Shown here piece after piece: positions 3,630 through 40,858 of a DNA stretch of 64,000 nt (its first letter is position 1; every line of letters begins with the position of its first letter). The notes under the pieces were generated by a model. It was not told where the DNA came from and ran no database searches. It saw only the letters and a program-made list of their open reading frames with translations. Origin of the DNA: Escherichia phage vB_EcoM_SQ17; the sequence record MW882907, one strand, 5' to 3'. Both the position numbers and the translations under genes were made by a program.

Positions 3630-3665
3630 TTATTAAAATTAAAATGAAGCTCCCGAAGGAGCTTA
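3630..3665 (-). terminator. putative rho-independent terminator (hairpin AAGCTCC-TTCG-GGAGCTT, then U-rich tract on minus strand)
   Basis: inverted repeat at 3646-3664 read on minus strand, followed by cattttaatttt; overlaps stop of the HNH gene. Confidence 0.4.
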
Positions 3666-4475
3666 GGACATCCAACACATTTTATAACCTTTGCAGGTTC
3701 TATTAGGATTATTTAATGCTTTCAATATATTAGAAGACCCTATATCTAAATACTCCCTTAATTCATAAAGATAGTTAAAATCAATAGTTTCGCCTGTTTT
3801 TACACTTGTGATTCTTATAGGCCTTCTTTCATATTTAGATTTATACAACTCTCTAGTCTTGGCTTTAGTTTCTTCTGACCTAGGAGTGTATGGTTTAAAT
3901 CCTTTTGTTTTAAATGTTTCCATTCTTGATTTAGTTATTTTATCCTGGTGTTCTTTTGTTTTTACAGGTGCTTTTCGCCCATTCTCCCAAGATAACTTGT
4001 TGGCCTGTATTATTTTATCTATTGCTTCTTGCGTATGAGTTTTACCATAAAATGGATTTAATTCGCCTATACGTTGTGAAGCAATATGTGACATTAATTC
4101 TCTTGTTGCTTTAGTATGTTTTTTACCTTTAAACGGGTTGCCATTTTTAGCAATCCATTCTTTCATAAATCTAGAGTGCTCTTTAGAGAATTCTTGTTTA
4201 AGCCAATCATAATCTCTAGAATTTCTAGCTCCCATGTAAAAAGCTCTAATAGCCATAAGCATAGAACGGTTCTTATGAATTTTATAAAGCAATAAATGGG
4301 CGATAAAATGCTCTCTAGGGGTCATTTTAACTAGATTTGATTTAGCATTACTCCCGCCCATAGATTTAGGCAAAATATGGTGAGTTTCAGTATAATTAGG
4401 AATAATGCTGCGGTTTTTAGCCGCAGCGATAAGTTTATCATAAATTTTACGGTAATTCATTATCCTAGCATCCAA
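3663..4475 (-). CDS. HNH homing endonuclease, Mob-like, free-standing
   Basis: 270 aa; HHILPKSMGGSNAKSNLVKMTPREHFIAHLLL is a typical HNH core; lies between the glycosyltransferase and gene 39 where T4 has mobA; true start may be the internal ATG at 4458-4460. Confidence 0.75.
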   Translation of the reverse strand: MDARIMNYRKIYDKLIAAAKNRSIIPNYTETHHILPKSMGGSNAKSNLVKMTPREHFIAHLLLYKIHKNRSMLMAIRAFYMGARNSRDYDWLKQEFSKEHSRFMKEWIAKNGNPFKGKKHTKATRELMSHIASQRIGELNPFYGKTHTQEAIDKIIQANKLSWENGRKAPVKTKEHQDKITKSRMETFKTKGFKPYTPRSEETKAKTRELYKSKYERRPIRITSVKTGETIDFNYLYELREYLDIGSSNILKALNNPNRTCKGYKMCWMS

Positions 4476-6280
4476 TCTTTACGGAGTTCAGGGTCGTTAC
4501 CCATGAGCATTTCAAATAGTTCTTTCCAATTTTCAGGAAGTTTAACTACGTCGTACACAGGGTTTTGAATCATTTCTTTATATTCATCCCGCTGAAGTGA
4601 GCCCAATCCCTTGATGTATCGAATACTATGCTTAGGCAGTGTATCTTTAGCTTCTTCATACTCAGCTACAGTATAAAACCATTTTTGAGTTTTGCCAATT
4701 TGTGCAATAATTACAGGCGTTTTAACAAAGCGAATACGTCCTTGTTCAAACAATTCAGGCCAATTACTAAAGAAAGCAAGCAAAGCCGGGTAAATACTTC
4801 CAAGACCATCATGATCGGCATCGGTCATAATTGCAATATTACGATAGTTCGTATTCTCAGCCTTTTCACCAAGAATAAGACCTGTGATAGCACAGATATC
4901 AAAGAGCTCTTTGTTCTTCATCATATCAGCATATGACATACCCCAGCTATTCATCACCTTACCACGTAATGGGAATCCGCCGTGTAGTTCACGGTCACGA
5001 ACATCAATGAGATAACCAATTGCCGAATCACCTTCTGTTAAAAACAATGTCGTATCTGCATCTTTACCGCATTGGTTAGCTTTAATATGCTTATGAACCT
5101 TAGCTTTAGTTGCCTTTTTAGCTGCTTTAGTTTCTGCAGCCTTTTCTGCCGCCAATTTACGAGCTAATGCTGCTTCAACAATAGGCATAATCAAGGCTTC
5201 GTTTTTAAGAAGTGCCTGAGCAATTTTCTTAGCATCTAATTGGATATGATTACGAATATCACCATACGTCGACGTTAAACGTTCTTTAGTCTGAGAATCA
5301 AAACGCATGTTGCTCATGTCTCTAATAAACATCAACATTGTGAGGCATTCTTTAACACGAGCTTTAGTGACTTCAATACCCTTATATTTCTTTTTAATGC
5401 CGGGCAAAAGATGTTCGCAGATATCATCCATTACACATTCAACATGATGACCACCATTTTTAGTATGAATGTTATTCACATAAGTTAAATGACGGAAGCC
5501 GTCTGGTGATGTTGTGAATGCTATAGAGACTTTATCATTTTCTTGAATGATGTTATCTTCGCCAAATTGTTTAGCAAATCGTTTAAAATTACCATCAACC
5601 TTTTTACCATTAAATGTGAACTTGATATCAGGATAAACGACTGCCAATGTTTGAAGTCGGTCCAAAGTAATATCTAAATAAATTTGAGATAAATTATGCT
5701 CTTCAAATGAAGAGAAATCAGGAGTGAAGATTACTTTAGTGCCTTTACCTTTAGATTTCTTAGAAGACCATGATTTGTTTTCCATTCCGTTTGAACAGTT
5801 AACAGTGATTTCATTTTCGCCATCTGATGTGATGCCTGTAAACAACGTAGAGAAGATATTAGTTAAACTACTCCCGACGCCGTTCATACCACCGGTCTTA
5901 CGTTCAGAGTCATCACCAAAGTTACCACCGGCCTTTGGAATAGTCCAGGCAGCTACAGGACCTGGAATCTGTTCACCATTTTGGTCGGTGACCATTGCTT
6001 GAGGAATACCACGTCCGTTATCTTCAACAGAAACTTGATTATTTTTAATTTGCACATCAATTTTATTTGCAAACTTAAATGATGTACGAATAGCTTCATC
6101 AACCGAGTTGTCAATAATCTCATCGATTAATTTAACCAGACCAGGAACATATTCAACTTGTTGATATTTACCAAACAAAAAACGCTCGTGGGCTTCTTTA
6201 GCAGAAGAACCAATATACATACCACTACGTTTCTTAATATGTTCTACATCCGACAATACCTTAATTTCATTTTTAATCAT
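4460..6280 (-). CDS. 39: DNA topoisomerase II large subunit (GyrB-like), uninterrupted 39+60 fusion
   Basis: 606 aa; N-terminal KKRSGMYIGS GyrB signature, GHKL ATPase region, Toprim FLTEGDSAIGYL; length equals T4 gp39 plus gp60 without the bypass element. Confidence 0.9.
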   Translation of the reverse strand: MIKNEIKVLSDVEHIKKRSGMYIGSSAKEAHERFLFGKYQQVEYVPGLVKLIDEIIDNSVDEAIRTSFKFANKIDVQIKNNQVSVEDNGRGIPQAMVTDQNGEQIPGPVAAWTIPKAGGNFGDDSERKTGGMNGVGSSLTNIFSTLFTGITSDGENEITVNCSNGMENKSWSSKKSKGKGTKVIFTPDFSSFEEHNLSQIYLDITLDRLQTLAVVYPDIKFTFNGKKVDGNFKRFAKQFGEDNIIQENDKVSIAFTTSPDGFRHLTYVNNIHTKNGGHHVECVMDDICEHLLPGIKKKYKGIEVTKARVKECLTMLMFIRDMSNMRFDSQTKERLTSTYGDIRNHIQLDAKKIAQALLKNEALIMPIVEAALARKLAAEKAAETKAAKKATKAKVHKHIKANQCGKDADTTLFLTEGDSAIGYLIDVRDRELHGGFPLRGKVMNSWGMSYADMMKNKELFDICAITGLILGEKAENTNYRNIAIMTDADHDGLGSIYPALLAFFSNWPELFEQGRIRFVKTPVIIAQIGKTQKWFYTVAEYEEAKDTLPKHSIRYIKGLGSLQRDEYKEMIQNPVYDVVKLPENWKELFEMLMGNDPELRKDWMLG

Positions 6281-36779: not shown

Positions 36780-38468
36780 TTATGAAACAGTCATTACAGT
36801 AAATCGTCCAACTTTGCTCATTTGAAGATGTTGTCCATAAGCTTGTGGGTCATGGTCTCTGTGACTAATTATAAACACGTTTGCATCGGTTAGAGAGTTA
36901 AGAATTGTTGAAATAGCTTTAATACCTTCAGAATCAGTCGCGGAATCCATGACTTCGTCCATAATTAATGTATTGATTCTAACACCAGAGACCTTTTCAG
37001 CAATATCTCGCCATGTAAACAACAATGCGATATCGATACGCGCTTTTTCGCCTTGACTAAATGAAGCATAACTGAACTCTTCACGGCCACGTGATTTTAT
37101 AGATTCATTGAATTCTTCATCAATAGAAAACACGTAATCAGCTTCCATGATTTTAAGATAATGGTTAATCTGCTTGTTGAACAGAGGCACATATTTTTTA
37201 ATGATAGCACCTTTAATACCAGAATCTTTTAACATATCTGTGATAATACCACGATGGTATTTTTCAAGAACGATATCAGATTTTGTTTTAATGATTTTAT
37301 CAAGTTCTTTTTGAAGCAAAGCTATCTCATCGGCATGGTCGATAAATTCCGCTGAGGCTTGTTCTATTGCAGCTTTAACTTTCTTAGCTTTATCAATAGT
37401 GGCAATCATTGCTTGTTTCTTGGTACGAATATCAGATGCAAGGTCCTGTTTAGTCTTAACATTAGCTCTATATTCGTCCACTAGGACACTCAGATTATCT
37501 CTGTGACATGTAAGTTGCTCGAATGAGTGATTACATTCGTGAAGCTTATCGGTAATCTTAGAGACAATAGGATCACCCTGGTGCAACTGTGATGCACAAG
37601 TAGGACATGTGCCACCGTCATGATACATCTTAATAACTTTGTTATATGAGTCGATTTTAGATTTAATCAAGAATGCTTCTTGTCCGATCTTGTTGAATGC
37701 CTCAGTAGGGTCTTCATCAAGAACGATATTAAGTAGACGCTCGTTAGCTTCTTCGATTTCTGCTTTTAATGAACGAGCTTCTTTGGCTAGGTCGTCATAC
37801 ATATTCTGTAGACGCGCTACATTATCACCAGATAATTTCTTTTGACGTTCGATATTCTCGTTATAAATCTTAATTTGTTGGATAATACCATCTTTCTTGG
37901 CGTCGAGAACTTGTCCCTGGGAATTAAGTTCTCGAACTTGAGACTTATTGATTTTATCCATTTCAGCGAGTGTGCCGACTTCTAAAAGGTCTTCGACAAG
38001 TTTTCTACGAGCAGGGGTGCTAAGAGCCATGAAAGGGGTATACCCTGCCGTCCCAAGCACAACGATTTGTTTAAAAGACGCGTATGACATTCCGATGCTA
38101 CGTTCAAATTCTTCTTGGAAGTCACGACTGCTGGCAGATTCATCGAGACGAACACCGTCAACGGAGATTTCGAAAATATTGGGCTTTTGGCCACGTTTAA
38201 TGAAGTATTTTTTACCATCGAATTCCATCCAAAGCTCAACTAAGAGCTCTTTCTTGTTCGTGCTATTAATGATTTGCCCTTTCTTAACATCACGAAATGG
38301 TTTACCGAAAAGTCCGAAAGTAATGGCTTCTAACATCGTAGATTTACCACCACCATTTTTACCTGTGATTAAGGTCTTTTGGACTTTATCTAATTGGATA
38401 TCGATAAAATTTTGCCCAACAGACATTATATTTTTATAACGAACACGATTTAATTTAAATGTTTTCAC
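36780..38468 (-). CDS. 46: recombination endonuclease subunit (Rad50/SbcC-like ATPase)
   Basis: 562 aa; Walker A GKNGGGKST, coiled-coil middle with CPTC zinc hook, C-terminal signature and Walker B LIMDEV. Confidence 0.9.
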   Translation of the reverse strand: MKTFKLNRVRYKNIMSVGQNFIDIQLDKVQKTLITGKNGGGKSTMLEAITFGLFGKPFRDVKKGQIINSTNKKELLVELWMEFDGKKYFIKRGQKPNIFEISVDGVRLDESASSRDFQEEFERSIGMSYASFKQIVVLGTAGYTPFMALSTPARRKLVEDLLEVGTLAEMDKINKSQVRELNSQGQVLDAKKDGIIQQIKIYNENIERQKKLSGDNVARLQNMYDDLAKEARSLKAEIEEANERLLNIVLDEDPTEAFNKIGQEAFLIKSKIDSYNKVIKMYHDGGTCPTCASQLHQGDPIVSKITDKLHECNHSFEQLTCHRDNLSVLVDEYRANVKTKQDLASDIRTKKQAMIATIDKAKKVKAAIEQASAEFIDHADEIALLQKELDKIIKTKSDIVLEKYHRGIITDMLKDSGIKGAIIKKYVPLFNKQINHYLKIMEADYVFSIDEEFNESIKSRGREEFSYASFSQGEKARIDIALLFTWRDIAEKVSGVRINTLIMDEVMDSATDSEGIKAISTILNSLTDANVFIISHRDHDPQAYGQHLQMSKVGRFTVMTVS

Positions 38469-39330
38469 TTAAATTTTTCCTCATGAATTCAGAAACTAAA
38501 GCCTGTAAAGAACTTTGTATAGGATATCCTAAATTGACTAAATTTTTAGAAAAAGTCACATATTTAGGTTTGTTCATTTTAACCCATTCAACGTAAAGCA
38601 TATCAAAATTTTCCCAATGATATCCTTTTCTTCTAGATTTCAAATGAGTGTCTCTAACTTTAGGATTTTTCCAACTGCGTGAAACTCCAGCCGATAATGA
38701 TTCTCTATATTCGGCTGTTTTAGATATTTTACGACAAGCATCCAAATGTTTTTGTTTATTAATAGGGTCACTAAACCACTTTTGGGTCATAATAGAGACG
38801 GTTTCTTTAAATTCCTTTGAACTTGTCATAATTCTGTGTTTCTTTAAATTTTCCGGATTTTTAAACCATGCTTTTAAAGCTTGACTAATCTTAATTCTAT
38901 TATCCTGATTGGAATAGTATAATGTCATTTTTATAGAATTAACTTTACAAACATTTTCGAATTCTAAAGAATACACCTCGGCTATATTATTTAGTTCATG
39001 CGTTGTACAATTTAAATTAAATCGCCCGGTATACATTCTTTGAAGCGCGTTAATCATCTTGTGGTTGCCAGTTTTTGCCAAAATGCTATGTGCAATAAAA
39101 TGGTTATAATGACTTAAATGACACAAGTTCCATTTACATGTTTTAAAATCTGGAAAAATAGATTTTGGTAGTATATGGTGAACCTGAGTCAGTCCTTTTA
39201 CTTTATTAGTGGAATTAGTTTTTATAAAGTTTAAATACTCATCAAGTCCTTCCCACGAAGGGAAGGAGGTTTTAAGAATTTTATAAATTTGAGTTTCATA
39301 ATCAGTCTTCGTCATTATACGCGTCCTCAA
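38455..39330 (-). CDS. HNH homing endonuclease with NUMOD-like repeats, inserted between genes 47 and 46
   Basis: 291 aa; VHHILPKSIF ... NHFIAHSILA HNH core; repeated basic modules (KNPENLKKH, KWFSDPINKQKH, SWKNPKVRDTH). Confidence 0.75.
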   Translation of the reverse strand: MRTRIMTKTDYETQIYKILKTSFPSWEGLDEYLNFIKTNSTNKVKGLTQVHHILPKSIFPDFKTCKWNLCHLSHYNHFIAHSILAKTGNHKMINALQRMYTGRFNLNCTTHELNNIAEVYSLEFENVCKVNSIKMTLYYSNQDNRIKISQALKAWFKNPENLKKHRIMTSSKEFKETVSIMTQKWFSDPINKQKHLDACRKISKTAEYRESLSAGVSRSWKNPKVRDTHLKSRRKGYHWENFDMLYVEWVKMNKPKYVTFSKNLVNLGYPIQSSLQALVSEFMRKNLSENI

Positions 39331-39559
39331 TACATGCTTCAGCCATTTTAAGAATAGAGCCAGGAGTATCGTTGTCCATTATATTAAAGCTAAATTCAAT
39401 AGCCCAGTCGGTGCAGACATGAACTGCTTTAACTTCATTGCCTTCAACGCGTAATGGCTCAATCCAATACTTGATAGTGTTCTCGAATCCATCATCGTCT
39501 TTAACGTCCATTTCAACTTCAAGTCGAAGCCCAGCATTATTAAATTCATCTAAAGTCAT
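39302..39559 (-). CDS. hypothetical protein
   Basis: 85 aa acidic ORF between gene 47 and the HNH gene. Confidence 0.45.
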   Translation of the reverse strand: MTLDEFNNAGLRLEVEMDVKDDDGFENTIKYWIEPLRVEGNEVKAVHVCTDWAIEFSFNIMDNDTPGSILKMAEACIEDAYNDED

Positions 39560-40575
39560 TGTGTTGCCTCAATATAAAGTTCGTTGGAATATTTGACCAG
39601 CGCTTCTCTGTCTTCGTCTGAGATATCTGGAATCGCGTCAATATATTCTTTAATGATATCTTGAAGTGATTTAATCTCGATTTCCTGGTCGTCATCAGAT
39701 TCAACACTGTTATCAACTTTAGAAACCATACGAAGAGAGTGAACTACTTTTTCAAGTTCGGATTCAAACTTAGTCAACTCTAAATCAATTTCTGATACTA
39801 TAACACGTAAGGCTAGATTAGTATAATCAGAATAATTGATTTTGCCTTTAAACGGATAAGTGATTCGTCGATGCCATGTTGTTTCATTAGGAATAAATTC
39901 CATACGTTCAACATCAGTGTCAAATACCCAGAATCCGCGTGGGTCGTTTTCATCACCTGCAGTAAGGGTCCATGGTGTCCCAATATATTTAACGTTAGCA
40001 GCTTCAGAGATTGTGTGGAAGTGGCCGGACCAGACTTGTTTATAGGTCTTTAAGAAATCAGGTTCAAGCCCATGAGACTTCATTCCTTTATAGAAATAAA
40101 AACCATTCAGTTCCCAGTGCCCAACACAATACGCTGCGGAAGAAGTCTTGATGTGCTCTAAGATTTCACCTGTATTTTCTTCGCACATCCATGGAACGAT
40201 ATCAATCAGACATCCGTCAAAATCTACGGTAGTTGGATGCTCGTAAATAGTAAAGTTTTCAAATTGAGTTAACAATTCAGAAACAGTGTTAGGTGTTATT
40301 GTATTCTTAAACGCCATGTCATGGTTTCCTATCGTGACATGAACGTGAATGCCTGCTTTAGAAATCATATCAACGATTTCACGATTGAATTCCATTGTAC
40401 GATGTGTTATTGCTTTACGGACGTCAAACCAATCACCGTACTGAATCCAAGTTTTAATCCCGTGTTTCTTAGAGTATTCAATTGCTTGACGAATACCATC
40501 ACGTTGAATATCTTGAACCCATGGGTCATCTTGTTTGACTCCGATATGGAAGTCGCCTAAGTGCAAAATTTTCAT
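39556..40575 (-). CDS. 47: recombination endonuclease subunit (Mre11/SbcD-like phosphoesterase)
   Basis: 339 aa; calcineurin-like motifs LGDFH, GDWFD, GNHD, GHWE..GH. Confidence 0.9.
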   Translation of the reverse strand: MKILHLGDFHIGVKQDDPWVQDIQRDGIRQAIEYSKKHGIKTWIQYGDWFDVRKAITHRTMEFNREIVDMISKAGIHVHVTIGNHDMAFKNTITPNTVSELLTQFENFTIYEHPTTVDFDGCLIDIVPWMCEENTGEILEHIKTSSAAYCVGHWELNGFYFYKGMKSHGLEPDFLKTYKQVWSGHFHTISEAANVKYIGTPWTLTAGDENDPRGFWVFDTDVERMEFIPNETTWHRRITYPFKGKINYSDYTNLALRVIVSEIDLELTKFESELEKVVHSLRMVSKVDNSVESDDDQEIEIKSLQDIIKEYIDAIPDISDEDREALVKYSNELYIEATQ

Positions 40576-40621: not shown

Positions 40622-40646
40622 AAAAAAAGGAACTCCGAAGAGTTCC
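40622..40646 (-). terminator. rho-independent terminator (GGAACTC-TTCG-GAGTTCC + U7)
   Basis: perfect 7-bp stem and tetraloop followed by a T7 run on minus strand, upstream of gene 47. Confidence 0.55.
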
Positions 40647-40858
40647 TATCCACATAGTACACCGTACAGAGGCTCATTTGAACTTTTAAATCGAATGGGC
40701 TTGTATGTAATAGTTCCTTCGGCTTTAGCTTTATCATAAGACTCTTTAAAACGTCTCATTCTTTCTGCTTTGCCTTTACGGATTTTATCGAAATTTTCAG
40801 AAGTCGGGATGTTCGTCATGCATAAGCACCTCTCAGAAAATACCTAAATCGATTTCTC

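Follow-up and report, generated by a model that had tools for sequence, protein, structure and literature searches.

A MobD-like homing endonuclease gene in place of gene 46.1 of a Mosigvirus, with a predicted target in gene 46

Gene order and expression in the 47-46 operon

The window, the whole stretch of 64,000 nucleotides that was analysed, represents a Mosigvirus (RB69-like) genome. On its minus strand, gene 47 (39556..40575; Mre11/SbcD-like, 339 aa) is the first gene of a transcription unit that continues with a gene 46.2 homolog (39302..39559; 85 aa; Pfam PF25721 T4_Y03C, E=5.6e-44), an endonuclease gene, and gene 46 (36780..38468; Rad50/SbcC-like, 562 aa), which is the downstream neighbor and predicted target of the endonuclease. 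A terminator-like hairpin lies upstream of gene 47 (40647-40628). The initial annotation had placed the endonuclease gene within the gene 47/46 (Mre11/Rad50-like) operon, which our analysis supports, and between genes 47 and 46, which is correct for the gene order but not in the sense of directly following gene 47, as the 46.2 homolog (PF25721) intervenes. T4, as previously noted, has no endonuclease gene between 47 and 46; only 46.2 and 46.1 are present there.

An uninterrupted frame on the minus strand spans 38455..39330 and encodes 291 aa if counted from a TTG, the mechanical start at 39330. This open frame, as first annotated, is real, but translation almost certainly begins at the ATG at 39315, which yields a protein of 286 aa (38455..39315, minus strand; stop codon 38455-38457). 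A GAGGA Shine-Dalgarno sequence (39328-39324) is found 8 nt 5' of this ATG, and the TTG at 39330 was discarded as a start because it overlaps this sequence. Relatives of the gene have an annotated length of 861 nt.

The endonuclease gene is free-standing, outside any intron or intein, and is encoded on the same strand as 46.2 and 46, with start/stop codon overlaps of 14 nt at both ends. Its ATG lies 14 nt inside the 3' end of gene 46.2, constituting a translational overlap, and its last 14 nt (38455-38468) are shared with the start of gene 46, exactly the overlap initially described. A sigma-70 promoter scan near the gene returned matches at chance level, with no excess, and no T4 late-promoter TATAAATA was found near it. 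On the basis of these two results, a promoter belonging to the gene itself was discarded. The cassette is expressed as part of the resident 47-46.2-46 transcription unit, using the ribosome-binding site, ATG, and first seven codons of gene 46.1. This layout fits the "promoter-less cassette" arrangement described for mobA, C, D and E (PMC2988022).

A Mob-type HNH protein

Judged from its sequence, the ORF product is a T4 Mob-type HNH homing endonuclease, closest to MobD. The HNH (His-Me finger) core (residues 43-80; 39076..39189, minus strand) contains two strands (43-47 and 64-68) and a helix (69-80), which may form the beta-beta-alpha-metal fold of the superfamily. The catalytic motif, HHILPKS..WN..HLSHYNHFIAH, presents the His-Asn-His residues in order (HH..N..H..H; H46, H47, N63, H72, H76). 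Across 118 homologs, all four histidines (H46, H47, H72, H76) are invariant, and conservation of N63 is at least 90%. The protein matches PHROG 655 "homing endonuclease" (E=3.9e-31) and phrog_12434 "HNH endonuclease" (E=3e-12), and BLASTP aligns residues 43-277 with T4 MobD (E=1e-19), with the catalytic motif in register. Searches with tblastn also recovered mobD in T4 records. Thus, the motif bears out the initial description of an HNH protein, and the PHROG 655 and MobD matches support a homing endonuclease gene, now specified as Mob type.

Curated HNH models gave weak Pfam matches in few of the 118 homologs: 10 for HNH, 6 for HNH_5, and 5 for HNH_4. No Pfam HNH family (including PF01844, PF13392, and PF14279) matched the window protein at E<=1, and no HNH model was matched in an NCBIfam search. 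With the Pfam HNH cut-off at 21.4 bits, MobB reaches 22.5 and T4 MobD itself just 18.2, a weak match, whereas the window protein has no score. PDB searches returned no meaningful match with the protein sequence and nothing but low-complexity noise with the 118-sequence profile, and no relative of the protein was found in IMG/VR.

The middle of the protein contains three tandem basic helical repeats of ~33 aa (residues 132-232; 38620..38922, minus strand). This stretch is strongly basic (26 K+R versus 9 D+E) and all-helical in the structure model. Compared with shuffled sequences, repeats 1 and 2 and repeats 2 and 3 resemble each other with z of about 6, and repeats 1 and 3 with z of just 1.7. 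The repeat consensus, S..[FY][KR]..[VIL]S......W..P.....H, differs from NUMOD, and neither NUMOD1 (PF07453) and NUMOD3 (PF07460) nor the I-HmuI NUMOD-like model (PF22083) matched the endonuclease at E<=1. NUMOD3 was found in 51 of the 118 family members, which are more distant homologs. The initial report of repeated basic NUMOD-like modules is therefore accurate for the three basic repeats, but not for their resemblance to NUMOD. The repeats presumably contact DNA. The C-terminal module (residues 233-286; 38458..38619, minus strand; G.HW..D.LY..W.K.N.PK..F....LGYP), where model confidence is lower, is common to T4 MobD and to the Melville and Aplg8/T2 homologs described below, and is presumed to be a sequence-specific DNA-binding domain.

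T4 MobD and the window protein are homologous over their full length (29% identity) and have in common the HH..N..H..H motif, the helical basic middle, and the C-terminal module. Like the window gene, T4 mobD is free-standing, co-oriented with its neighbors, and without its own promoter (PMC2988022). The locus differs, as T4 mobD is located between nrdC.11 and mobD.1 and the window gene between 46.2 and 46. The window gene is typical of its kind, and public records already contain similar copies labeled "MobD-like homing endonuclease" or "HNH endonuclease".

Replacement of gene 46.1 and distribution of the cassette

Comparison with empty Mosigviruses (those without the endonuclease gene, a group that includes RB69 and APCEc01) delimited 825 nt of cassette-specific DNA without counterpart in these phages (38469..39293, minus strand). 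The junctions map to 39294/39293 and 38469/38468, the right one having been placed by end-anchored comparison. The slot is filled in other records by gene 46.1 (DUF5487, 79 aa, 240 nt, in the two empty genomes fetched), of which the cassette stands in place of 214 nt of the body. Thus, the cassette is a replacement of the non-essential 46.1 body and not a plain insertion.

To the left of the cassette is a captured initiation region (39294..39328, minus strand), which comprises GAGGA (39328-39324), the ATG (39315-39313), and the opening 22 nt of the ORF, and is identical to the gene 46.1 start in empty genomes. The alignment to the 46.1 gene of APCEc01 shows identity up to and including ATGACGAAGACTGATTATGAAA and then ends, and the cassette carrier retains the 46.1 ribosome-binding site and first seven codons. 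On the right, the cassette provides a new start for gene 46 (38466..38482, minus strand), with GAGGA (38482-38478), which lies within the endonuclease ORF, followed by a GTG (38468-38466). Gene 46 of empty Mosigviruses starts with ATG, not GTG.

With carriers defined as records covering at least 80% of a 2-kb query, the endonuclease gene was found in 9 of 161 matching phage records; the other listed Mosigvirus records matched the query in two pieces with a shorter span. The gene is thus absent from about 94% of Mosigvirus records, and its presence varies among near-identical phages, for which the empty alleles were aligned to the base. A conserved core gene, the reading that the initial annotation had named as one that would refute it, was discarded on the basis of this absence from close relatives. 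Carriers include F2, pEK20, and phiEC1. The window, F2, and pEK20 differ at 2-4 positions in the 825 nt of the cassette, at none in nt 1-70 of gene 46, and at 17-27 in 1370 nt of the gene 46 body, and gene 47 of pEK20 has 147 differences. A near-identical cassette in otherwise mosaic backgrounds is a mobile, sporadic element. The initial proposal of a mobile insertion is therefore retained for mobility and sporadic occurrence, but the element replaced 46.1 downstream of 46.2 and did not simply insert. The rarity of the gene (about 6% of records) fits a recent arrival and also a poorly mobile or decaying element.

Homologs are located directly upstream of gene 46 in two other genera: in Gelderlandvirus (Salmonella phage Melville; 56% identity), where 5 of 16 records are carriers and S16 and STML-198 are empty, and in T2/Aplg8-type Tequatrovirus phages (about 45% identity). 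Both align over their full length and have the same three-part architecture as the window protein, and the T2 copy is broken into ORFs of 615 and 258 nt. The Melville homolog is present or absent among close Gelderlandvirus relatives, as is the window gene among Mosigviruses. Among T4 relatives, an endonuclease in this position is therefore not unusual, and the initial comparison, made with T4 alone, overstated its rarity. We found no published description of an endonuclease at the 46.1/46 locus, although our search was not exhaustive.

The window, Melville, and T2/Aplg8 genes each take over a resident start site, in different ways. The window gene is fused to codon 7 of 46.1. In Melville, which has neither 46.1 nor 46.2, the endonuclease ATG overlaps the gene 47 stop, and the protein lacks the captured N-terminal residues. 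T2/Aplg8 phages keep 46.1; their endonuclease ORF has taken over codons 1-6 of the old gene 46 as its own beginning, and a new gene 46 start follows 15 nt past the endonuclease stop. Melville shares with the window gene the 14-nt read-through into gene 46. Given this same overlap in a 56%-identical homolog, the junction predates the window/Melville split, and the overlap is not, as had been proposed, a sign of recent insertion.

The recurrent place of these genes beside gene 46 in three genera, together with translational coupling within the 47-46 operon, would be explained if the protein were a domesticated accessory nuclease or DNA-binding factor of the gp46/gp47 (Rad50/Mre11-like) complex, and HNH genes beside essential genes can be read either way (PMC10448857). 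A similar case has been argued for HNH proteins beside terminases. Domestication is nevertheless very improbable here. The gene is missing from most Gelderlandvirus records and from T4 as well as from about 94% of Mosigvirus records, and it is therefore not needed for gp46/47 function. Moreover, the T2 copy is split, the full-length homolog T4 MobD occupies an unrelated locus, and the target-like polymorphism linked to the gene (see below) is a prediction of a selfish element.

The split T2 homolog is also consistent with a relic, i.e., an element that arrived by homing or recombination, is now immobile because its activity has been lost or sensitive targets are lacking, and persists only since its deletion would damage the gene 46 start inside the endonuclease ORF. 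The gene 46 Shine-Dalgarno sequence and GTG are indeed embedded in that ORF, making the cassette hard to lose cleanly, and both the low frequency (9/161 records) and a protein too divergent for Pfam HNH models fit a relic. We consider a relic unlikely, as the ORF is intact in 3/3 Mosigvirus copies compared, every residue of the catalytic motif is conserved, and about 140 sensitive-type alleles occur within the same genus. The cassette is also far less diverse than its flanks, which suggests recent spread.

A variant patch in gene 46 and the predicted target

Carriers also differ from empty Mosigviruses inside gene 46, where a patch at nt 34-62 has 11 substitutions in 29 nt and three amino-acid changes (Q12K, G19Q, P21F). 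The empty allele reads TA[TC]CA[AG]AACAT[CT]ATGTC[GA]GT[AG]GG[TC]GG[GT] (YQNIMSVGG) and the carrier variant AATATAATGTCTGTTGGGCAA (NIMSVGQ). A 98-nt variant of the gene 46 5' end, 99-100% identical, occurs in 9/9 carrier records and in 5 of about 150 empties (Fisher p=1e-11, without correction for phylogeny). Overall, about 850 Tevenvirinae records match the gene 46 5' end. Within Gelderlandvirus, the same diagnostic gene 46 bases tell the filled allele (Melville) from the empty ones (S16, STML-198). The endonuclease-linked divergence stops at gene 46 nt 61-64 in each of the three genera, with ends at nt 62, 63, and 64, and from this shared limit we predict a target or immunity site at gene 46 nt ~34-64 (codons 12-21; 38405..38435, minus strand). 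No exact match to the patch was found in IMG/VR.

Five empty genomes, including G2285, have the carrier-type patch. The patch may therefore be older than the cassette, with common descent as their only link. Furthermore, about 32 nt of ordinary Mosigvirus sequence separate the patch from the cassette, so that the two are not one continuous foreign tract. These observations could be accounted for by an active homing endonuclease that has its site elsewhere, for example in 46.1 or at the 46.1/46 junction, both of which the cassette has destroyed, or at an unlinked locus, with the gene 46 patch a hitchhiking polymorphism. Loss of 46.1 alone would destroy a target inside it and give immunity, and no known target is listed for T4 MobD (PMC2988022). 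Such a site elsewhere is, however, quite unlikely given the comparison among genera: the left junctions differ (inside 46.1, at the stop of gene 47, and within codon 6 of gene 46), STML-198 is without any 46.1, and the gene 46 5' end is the sole part common to all three. In addition, the three genera agree in the right limit at nt 61-64, and the same base changes are seen in both Mosigvirus and Gelderlandvirus.

We therefore favor, with a probability of roughly 0.75, a promoterless MobD-like homing cassette that replaced 46.1 and targets empty gene 46 near nt ~34-64. During mixed infection, the enzyme would nick or cut the endonuclease-free gene 46 allele near this site, and the break would be resected and then repaired off the endonuclease-carrying genome. 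Repair would place the cassette and a resistant site variant where 46.1 was, and the carrier's own gene 46 would be shielded by its variant sequence. The outcome would be "intronless homing", in which the DNA lying between the gene and the cut site is necessarily co-converted. In the known form of this process, a free-standing endonuclease gene adjoins a conserved gene, and its product cuts that conserved gene in genomes without the endonuclease. Repair of the break copies the endonuclease gene in and co-converts markers on its flanks, and substitutions in the site protect the carrier (PMC2988022, PMC2790892). The proposed mechanism is that of MobE on nrdB and SegG on gene 32. Activity has been demonstrated and sites mapped for MobE and SegG, whereas for the window gene the activity, site, and biased inheritance are inferred from comparative sequence.

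Replacement at a shared slot has a parallel in T4 relatives, in which Sandegren, Nord and Sjoberg reportedly described in 2005 that SegH/Hef replace mobC/mobE. In both cases the slot is held by a different gene in close relatives. SegH/Hef exchange one endonuclease gene for another, whereas the window cassette replaces the small ORF 46.1.

More tentatively, and with somewhat less than even odds, a single MobD-like lineage may have specialized on the first ~64 nt of gene 46 and crossed between three Tevenvirinae genera, rebuilding the gene 46 start. Each time it would have taken over whichever start codon lay upstream, be it that of 46.1, the one at the gene 47 stop/gene 46 start, or that of gene 46. 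If this is true, the comparative data already narrow the recognition site down to about 30 bp, the T4-type and G2285-type alleles would be resistant, and the RB69/APCEc01-type and S16-type alleles sensitive. The target gene would then encode part of the nuclease complex used in T4 break repair, and possibly in homing itself.

The window gene leaves the current understanding of homing endonucleases unchanged. The cassette is a clean example of resident-gene replacement that spares an essential downstream gene, with one start site taken and another donated. In Mosigvirus phages employed in therapy, the locus marks mosaicism and is a hotspot of recombination. Gene 46 is absent from the list of known T4 endonuclease targets (PMC2988022). 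If our inference holds, it would be added to the few conserved genes of the T4 family on record as targets of free-standing endonucleases, and a MobD-like enzyme would gain a predicted target some 30 bp long, for which sensitive and resistant alleles occur in nature.

The endonuclease cassette and the displaced 46.1

An uninterrupted open reading frame of 291 aa runs from a TTG across 38455..39330 (minus strand), the coordinates given in the initial annotation. This TTG overlaps a GAGGA Shine-Dalgarno sequence (39328-39324), which is followed after an 8-nt spacing by an ATG at 39315, and near-identical genes are annotated in GenBank with 861 nt (286 aa). We take the ATG at 39315, not the TTG, to be the probable start. 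The order on this one strand is gene 47 (Mre11/SbcD-like; 39556-40575), a homolog of T4 46.2 (39302-39559; Pfam T4_Y03C, E=5.6e-44), the endonuclease ORF and gene 46 (Rad50/SbcC-like; 36780-38468). The ORF shares 14 nt with 46.2 and, as originally recorded, 14 nt with gene 46, and only 46.2 and 46.1 lie between 47 and 46 in T4, which indeed has no endonuclease there. Directly upstream of gene 47, a terminator-like hairpin at 40628-40647 (minus strand; AGGAACTCTTCGGAGTTCCT and then a T-run) bounds the 47-46.2-endonuclease-46 unit on its upstream side; a terminator is annotated at the matching position in phage G2285.

Matches to a 2-kb query spanning the locus came from 161 phage records, nearly all of them Mosigvirus-type phages of Escherichia and Shigella at 95-99% identity. 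The whole query was covered in only nine (phiEC1, PNJ-9, G2469, pEK20, two records of F2, AV112, AV113, and 172859UKE1), and the remaining listed Mosigvirus records matched it as two pieces. In the fetched genomes without the endonuclease (“empty”; APCEc01 and G2285), the slot holds a 240-nt gene annotated as DUF5487 family, a homolog of T4 46.1. End-anchored comparison of the window with APCEc01 showed left homology extending 22 nt into the ORF (ATGACGAAGACTGATTATGAAA). Beyond 39294 this homology is lost until the gene 46 start codon (38468/38467), so that an 825-nt cassette (38469-39293) stands in place of 214 nt of the 46.1 body. From 46.1 the ORF has taken the ribosome-binding site, the ATG, and the first seven codons (MTKTDYE), residues that are absent from the homolog in Salmonella phage Melville. 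The 3′ end of the cassette carries GAGGA (38482-38478) and a GTG that now starts gene 46, for which empty Mosigviruses use ATG.

Comparison of the window, F2, and pEK20 gave 2-4 differences over the 825 nt of the cassette and none over the first 70 nt of gene 46, against 17-27 over 1370 nt of the gene 46 body. In pEK20 gene 47, the 5′ half (first ~470 nt) has ~147 differences from the window, F2, G2285, and APCEc01, ending at a sharp mosaic boundary inside the gene. Since the cassette is near-identical while the gene 46 body and pEK20 gene 47 differ, we conclude from these alignments that one cassette has been placed in different backgrounds.

Relationship to the Mob endonucleases

Identification of the protein as an HNH homing endonuclease depends on several indirect lines of evidence that agree with one another. 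Searches gave no HNH or NUMOD match in Pfam at E<=1, no match in NCBIfam, and none among PDB sequences. The protein matches PHROG 655 (“homing endonuclease,” E=3.9e-31) and phrog_12434 (“HNH endonuclease,” E=3e-12), and BLASTP aligns its residues 43-277 with T4 MobD (E=1e-19), with the HH..N..H..H motif in register and a common C-terminal module (G.HW..D.LY..W.K.N.PK..F....LGYP). GenBank labels near-identical genes “MobD-like homing endonuclease” or “HNH endonuclease,” and the Melville and T2-type homologs “homing endonuclease.” The family comprises 766 representatives at E<=1e-3, with few close full-length relatives. In a 118-sequence family alignment H46, H47, I48, P50, H72, and H76 are invariant and N63 is conserved in at least 90%; NUMOD3 is present in 51 of these sequences, and weak Pfam matches were obtained to HNH (10), HNH_5 (6), and HNH_4 (5). 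T4 MobB lies above the Pfam HNH cut-off and T4 MobD slightly below, and the Mob group as a whole is therefore borderline for these models.

AlphaFold modelled the protein with confidence (pLDDT 88 overall, 91.5 for the N-terminal domain), and in the models the conserved residues lie on a strand-strand-helix unit (43-47, 64-68, and 69-80). Residues 132-232 form three ~33-aa repeats (z ~6 versus shuffles in two of the three pairs) with 26 K+R versus 9 D+E; the repeated basic modules first proposed are thus real, but no NUMOD model matches them.

The window holds a second Mob-like HNH ORF of ~265-270 aa (3663-4475, minus strand), presumably the one that the initial annotation counted as the first. 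It carries HHILPKS..N..REHFIAH and NUMOD3-like GKKHT/GKTHT repeats, and lies directly downstream of, and overlapping, the gene for a 606-aa topoisomerase subunit (4460-6280), a placement like that of T4 mobA near gene 39.

The locus in other genera and a candidate target in gene 46

Melville (Gelderlandvirus) encodes a 280-aa homolog, 56% identical, directly between 47 and 46 and extending 14 nt into gene 46. The endonuclease is present in 5/16 Gelderlandvirus records (4 phages), and the others are empty. Because the empty forms are of two kinds, S16 with a 123-nt 46.1-like ORF and STML-198 with nothing between 47 and 46, the interval is variable in this genus even without the endonuclease; in STML-198 genes 47 and 46 overlap directly. 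T2-like Tequatroviruses (Aplg8, T2, and many others) have a ~45%-identical homolog between 46.1 and 46. An intact 855-nt copy occurs in Aplg8 and many other Tequatroviruses; the T2 copy (2932-3784 of L005, the T2 sequence) is split into ORFs of 615 and 258 nt and appears to be decaying in this classic laboratory phage.

The window, Melville, and T2-type proteins can be aligned over their entire length, and their left junctions are not alike. The junction falls inside codons 5-8 of 46.1 in the window. The Melville ATG and the gene 47 stop overlap, exactly at the GTGA of STML-198 gene 46. In Aplg8 and T2 the ORF opens with GTGAAGAATTTTAAACTT, the initial six codons of gene 46 in T4, and their own gene 46 restarts downstream with ATGAAATCATTTAAACTT. 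In all three genera the resident start site is taken over by the cassette and a new one is supplied for gene 46.

Separated from the cassette by ~32 nt of ordinary Mosigvirus sequence, gene 46 of the window has 11 substitutions relative to APCEc01 in 29 nt (nt 34-62; 38407-38435), three of them protein-altering, versus 0-4 per 60 nt over the next several hundred nt. A 98-nt query of this 5′ region is 99-100% identical in 9/9 carrier records; among the empty records only five reach this level (G2285, WFL6982, WFK, ESCO47, and PTE-Eco05), and the other ~140 Mosigvirus records are at 86-88% (Fisher p=1e-11, uncorrected for relatedness). G2285 is 100% identical and the other four 99%; all five have an intact 46.1 and no endonuclease, and G2285 gene 46 starts with ATG. 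Empty alleles in Mosigvirus and Gelderlandvirus read TA[TC] CA[AG] AAC AT[CT] ATG TC[GA] GT[AG] GG[TC] GG[GT] (YQNIMSVGG), and carrier alleles in the three genera AAT ATA ATG TC[TA] GTT GG. CAA (NIMSVGQ); T4 is empty, yet has the carrier-type sequence.

Over the first 63 nt of gene 46, Melville differs from S16 and STML-198 at 24-26 positions, with hardly any differences thereafter; linked differences end at nt 62 in Mosigvirus, 63 in Gelderlandvirus, and 64 in Tequatrovirus. The first 33 nt of Melville gene 46 are T2-like (2 mismatches, versus ~10 per 33 nt further on), which suggests that the cassette moved between genera along with the start of gene 46. The target assigned to the gene 46 5′ end is a putative one, mainly because empty but resistant (G2285-type) genomes exist. 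Such genomes could be products of short conversion tracts or retain a pre-existing (ancestral) resistant haplotype. The ~32-nt gap between patch and cassette and the three protein-altering changes likewise call for caution over this target.

A second dense patch of divergence from APCEc01 lies at the 3′ end of gene 46 (~36841-36968), with 41 substitutions in nt 1501-1620 and many amino-acid changes at residues 497-543; most of this variant is common to the window, F2, and G2285. Just downstream of gene 46, F2, G2285, and Aplg8 have a mobB-like endonuclease gene on the opposite strand that replaces 45.2, which is present in the window. The 3′ patch may have been left by another homing endonuclease, as its footprint or as its resistant allele.

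Proposed homing into the 46.1 slot

The best-supported reading of these comparisons is “intronless homing,” as for the free-standing endonucleases of T4, in which the endonuclease cuts a conserved gene at some distance from its own and repair co-converts all DNA between cut site and endonuclease gene (PMC2988022). A YQNIMSVGG-type allele would be nicked or cut near nt ~34-64 of gene 46, resection would extend as far as the homologous DNA of 46.2/47 to one side and of gene 46 to the other, and carrier-templated repair would put the cassette where 46.1 had been and bring the resistant site with it. The upstream operon would drive expression, through translational coupling. No promoter signal was found for the endonuclease gene, which matches the promoterless mobA, mobC, mobD, and mobE cassettes of T4 (PMC2988022).

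Our literature search found no paper on an endonuclease at the 46.1/46 locus; gene 46 is not among the T4 endonuclease targets listed in PMC2988022, where the MobD target is given as unknown. The present analysis adds the replacement architecture of the cassette at 46.1, the capture of start sites in three genera, and a predicted target of ~30 bp whose natural alleles would include sensitive and resistant ones.
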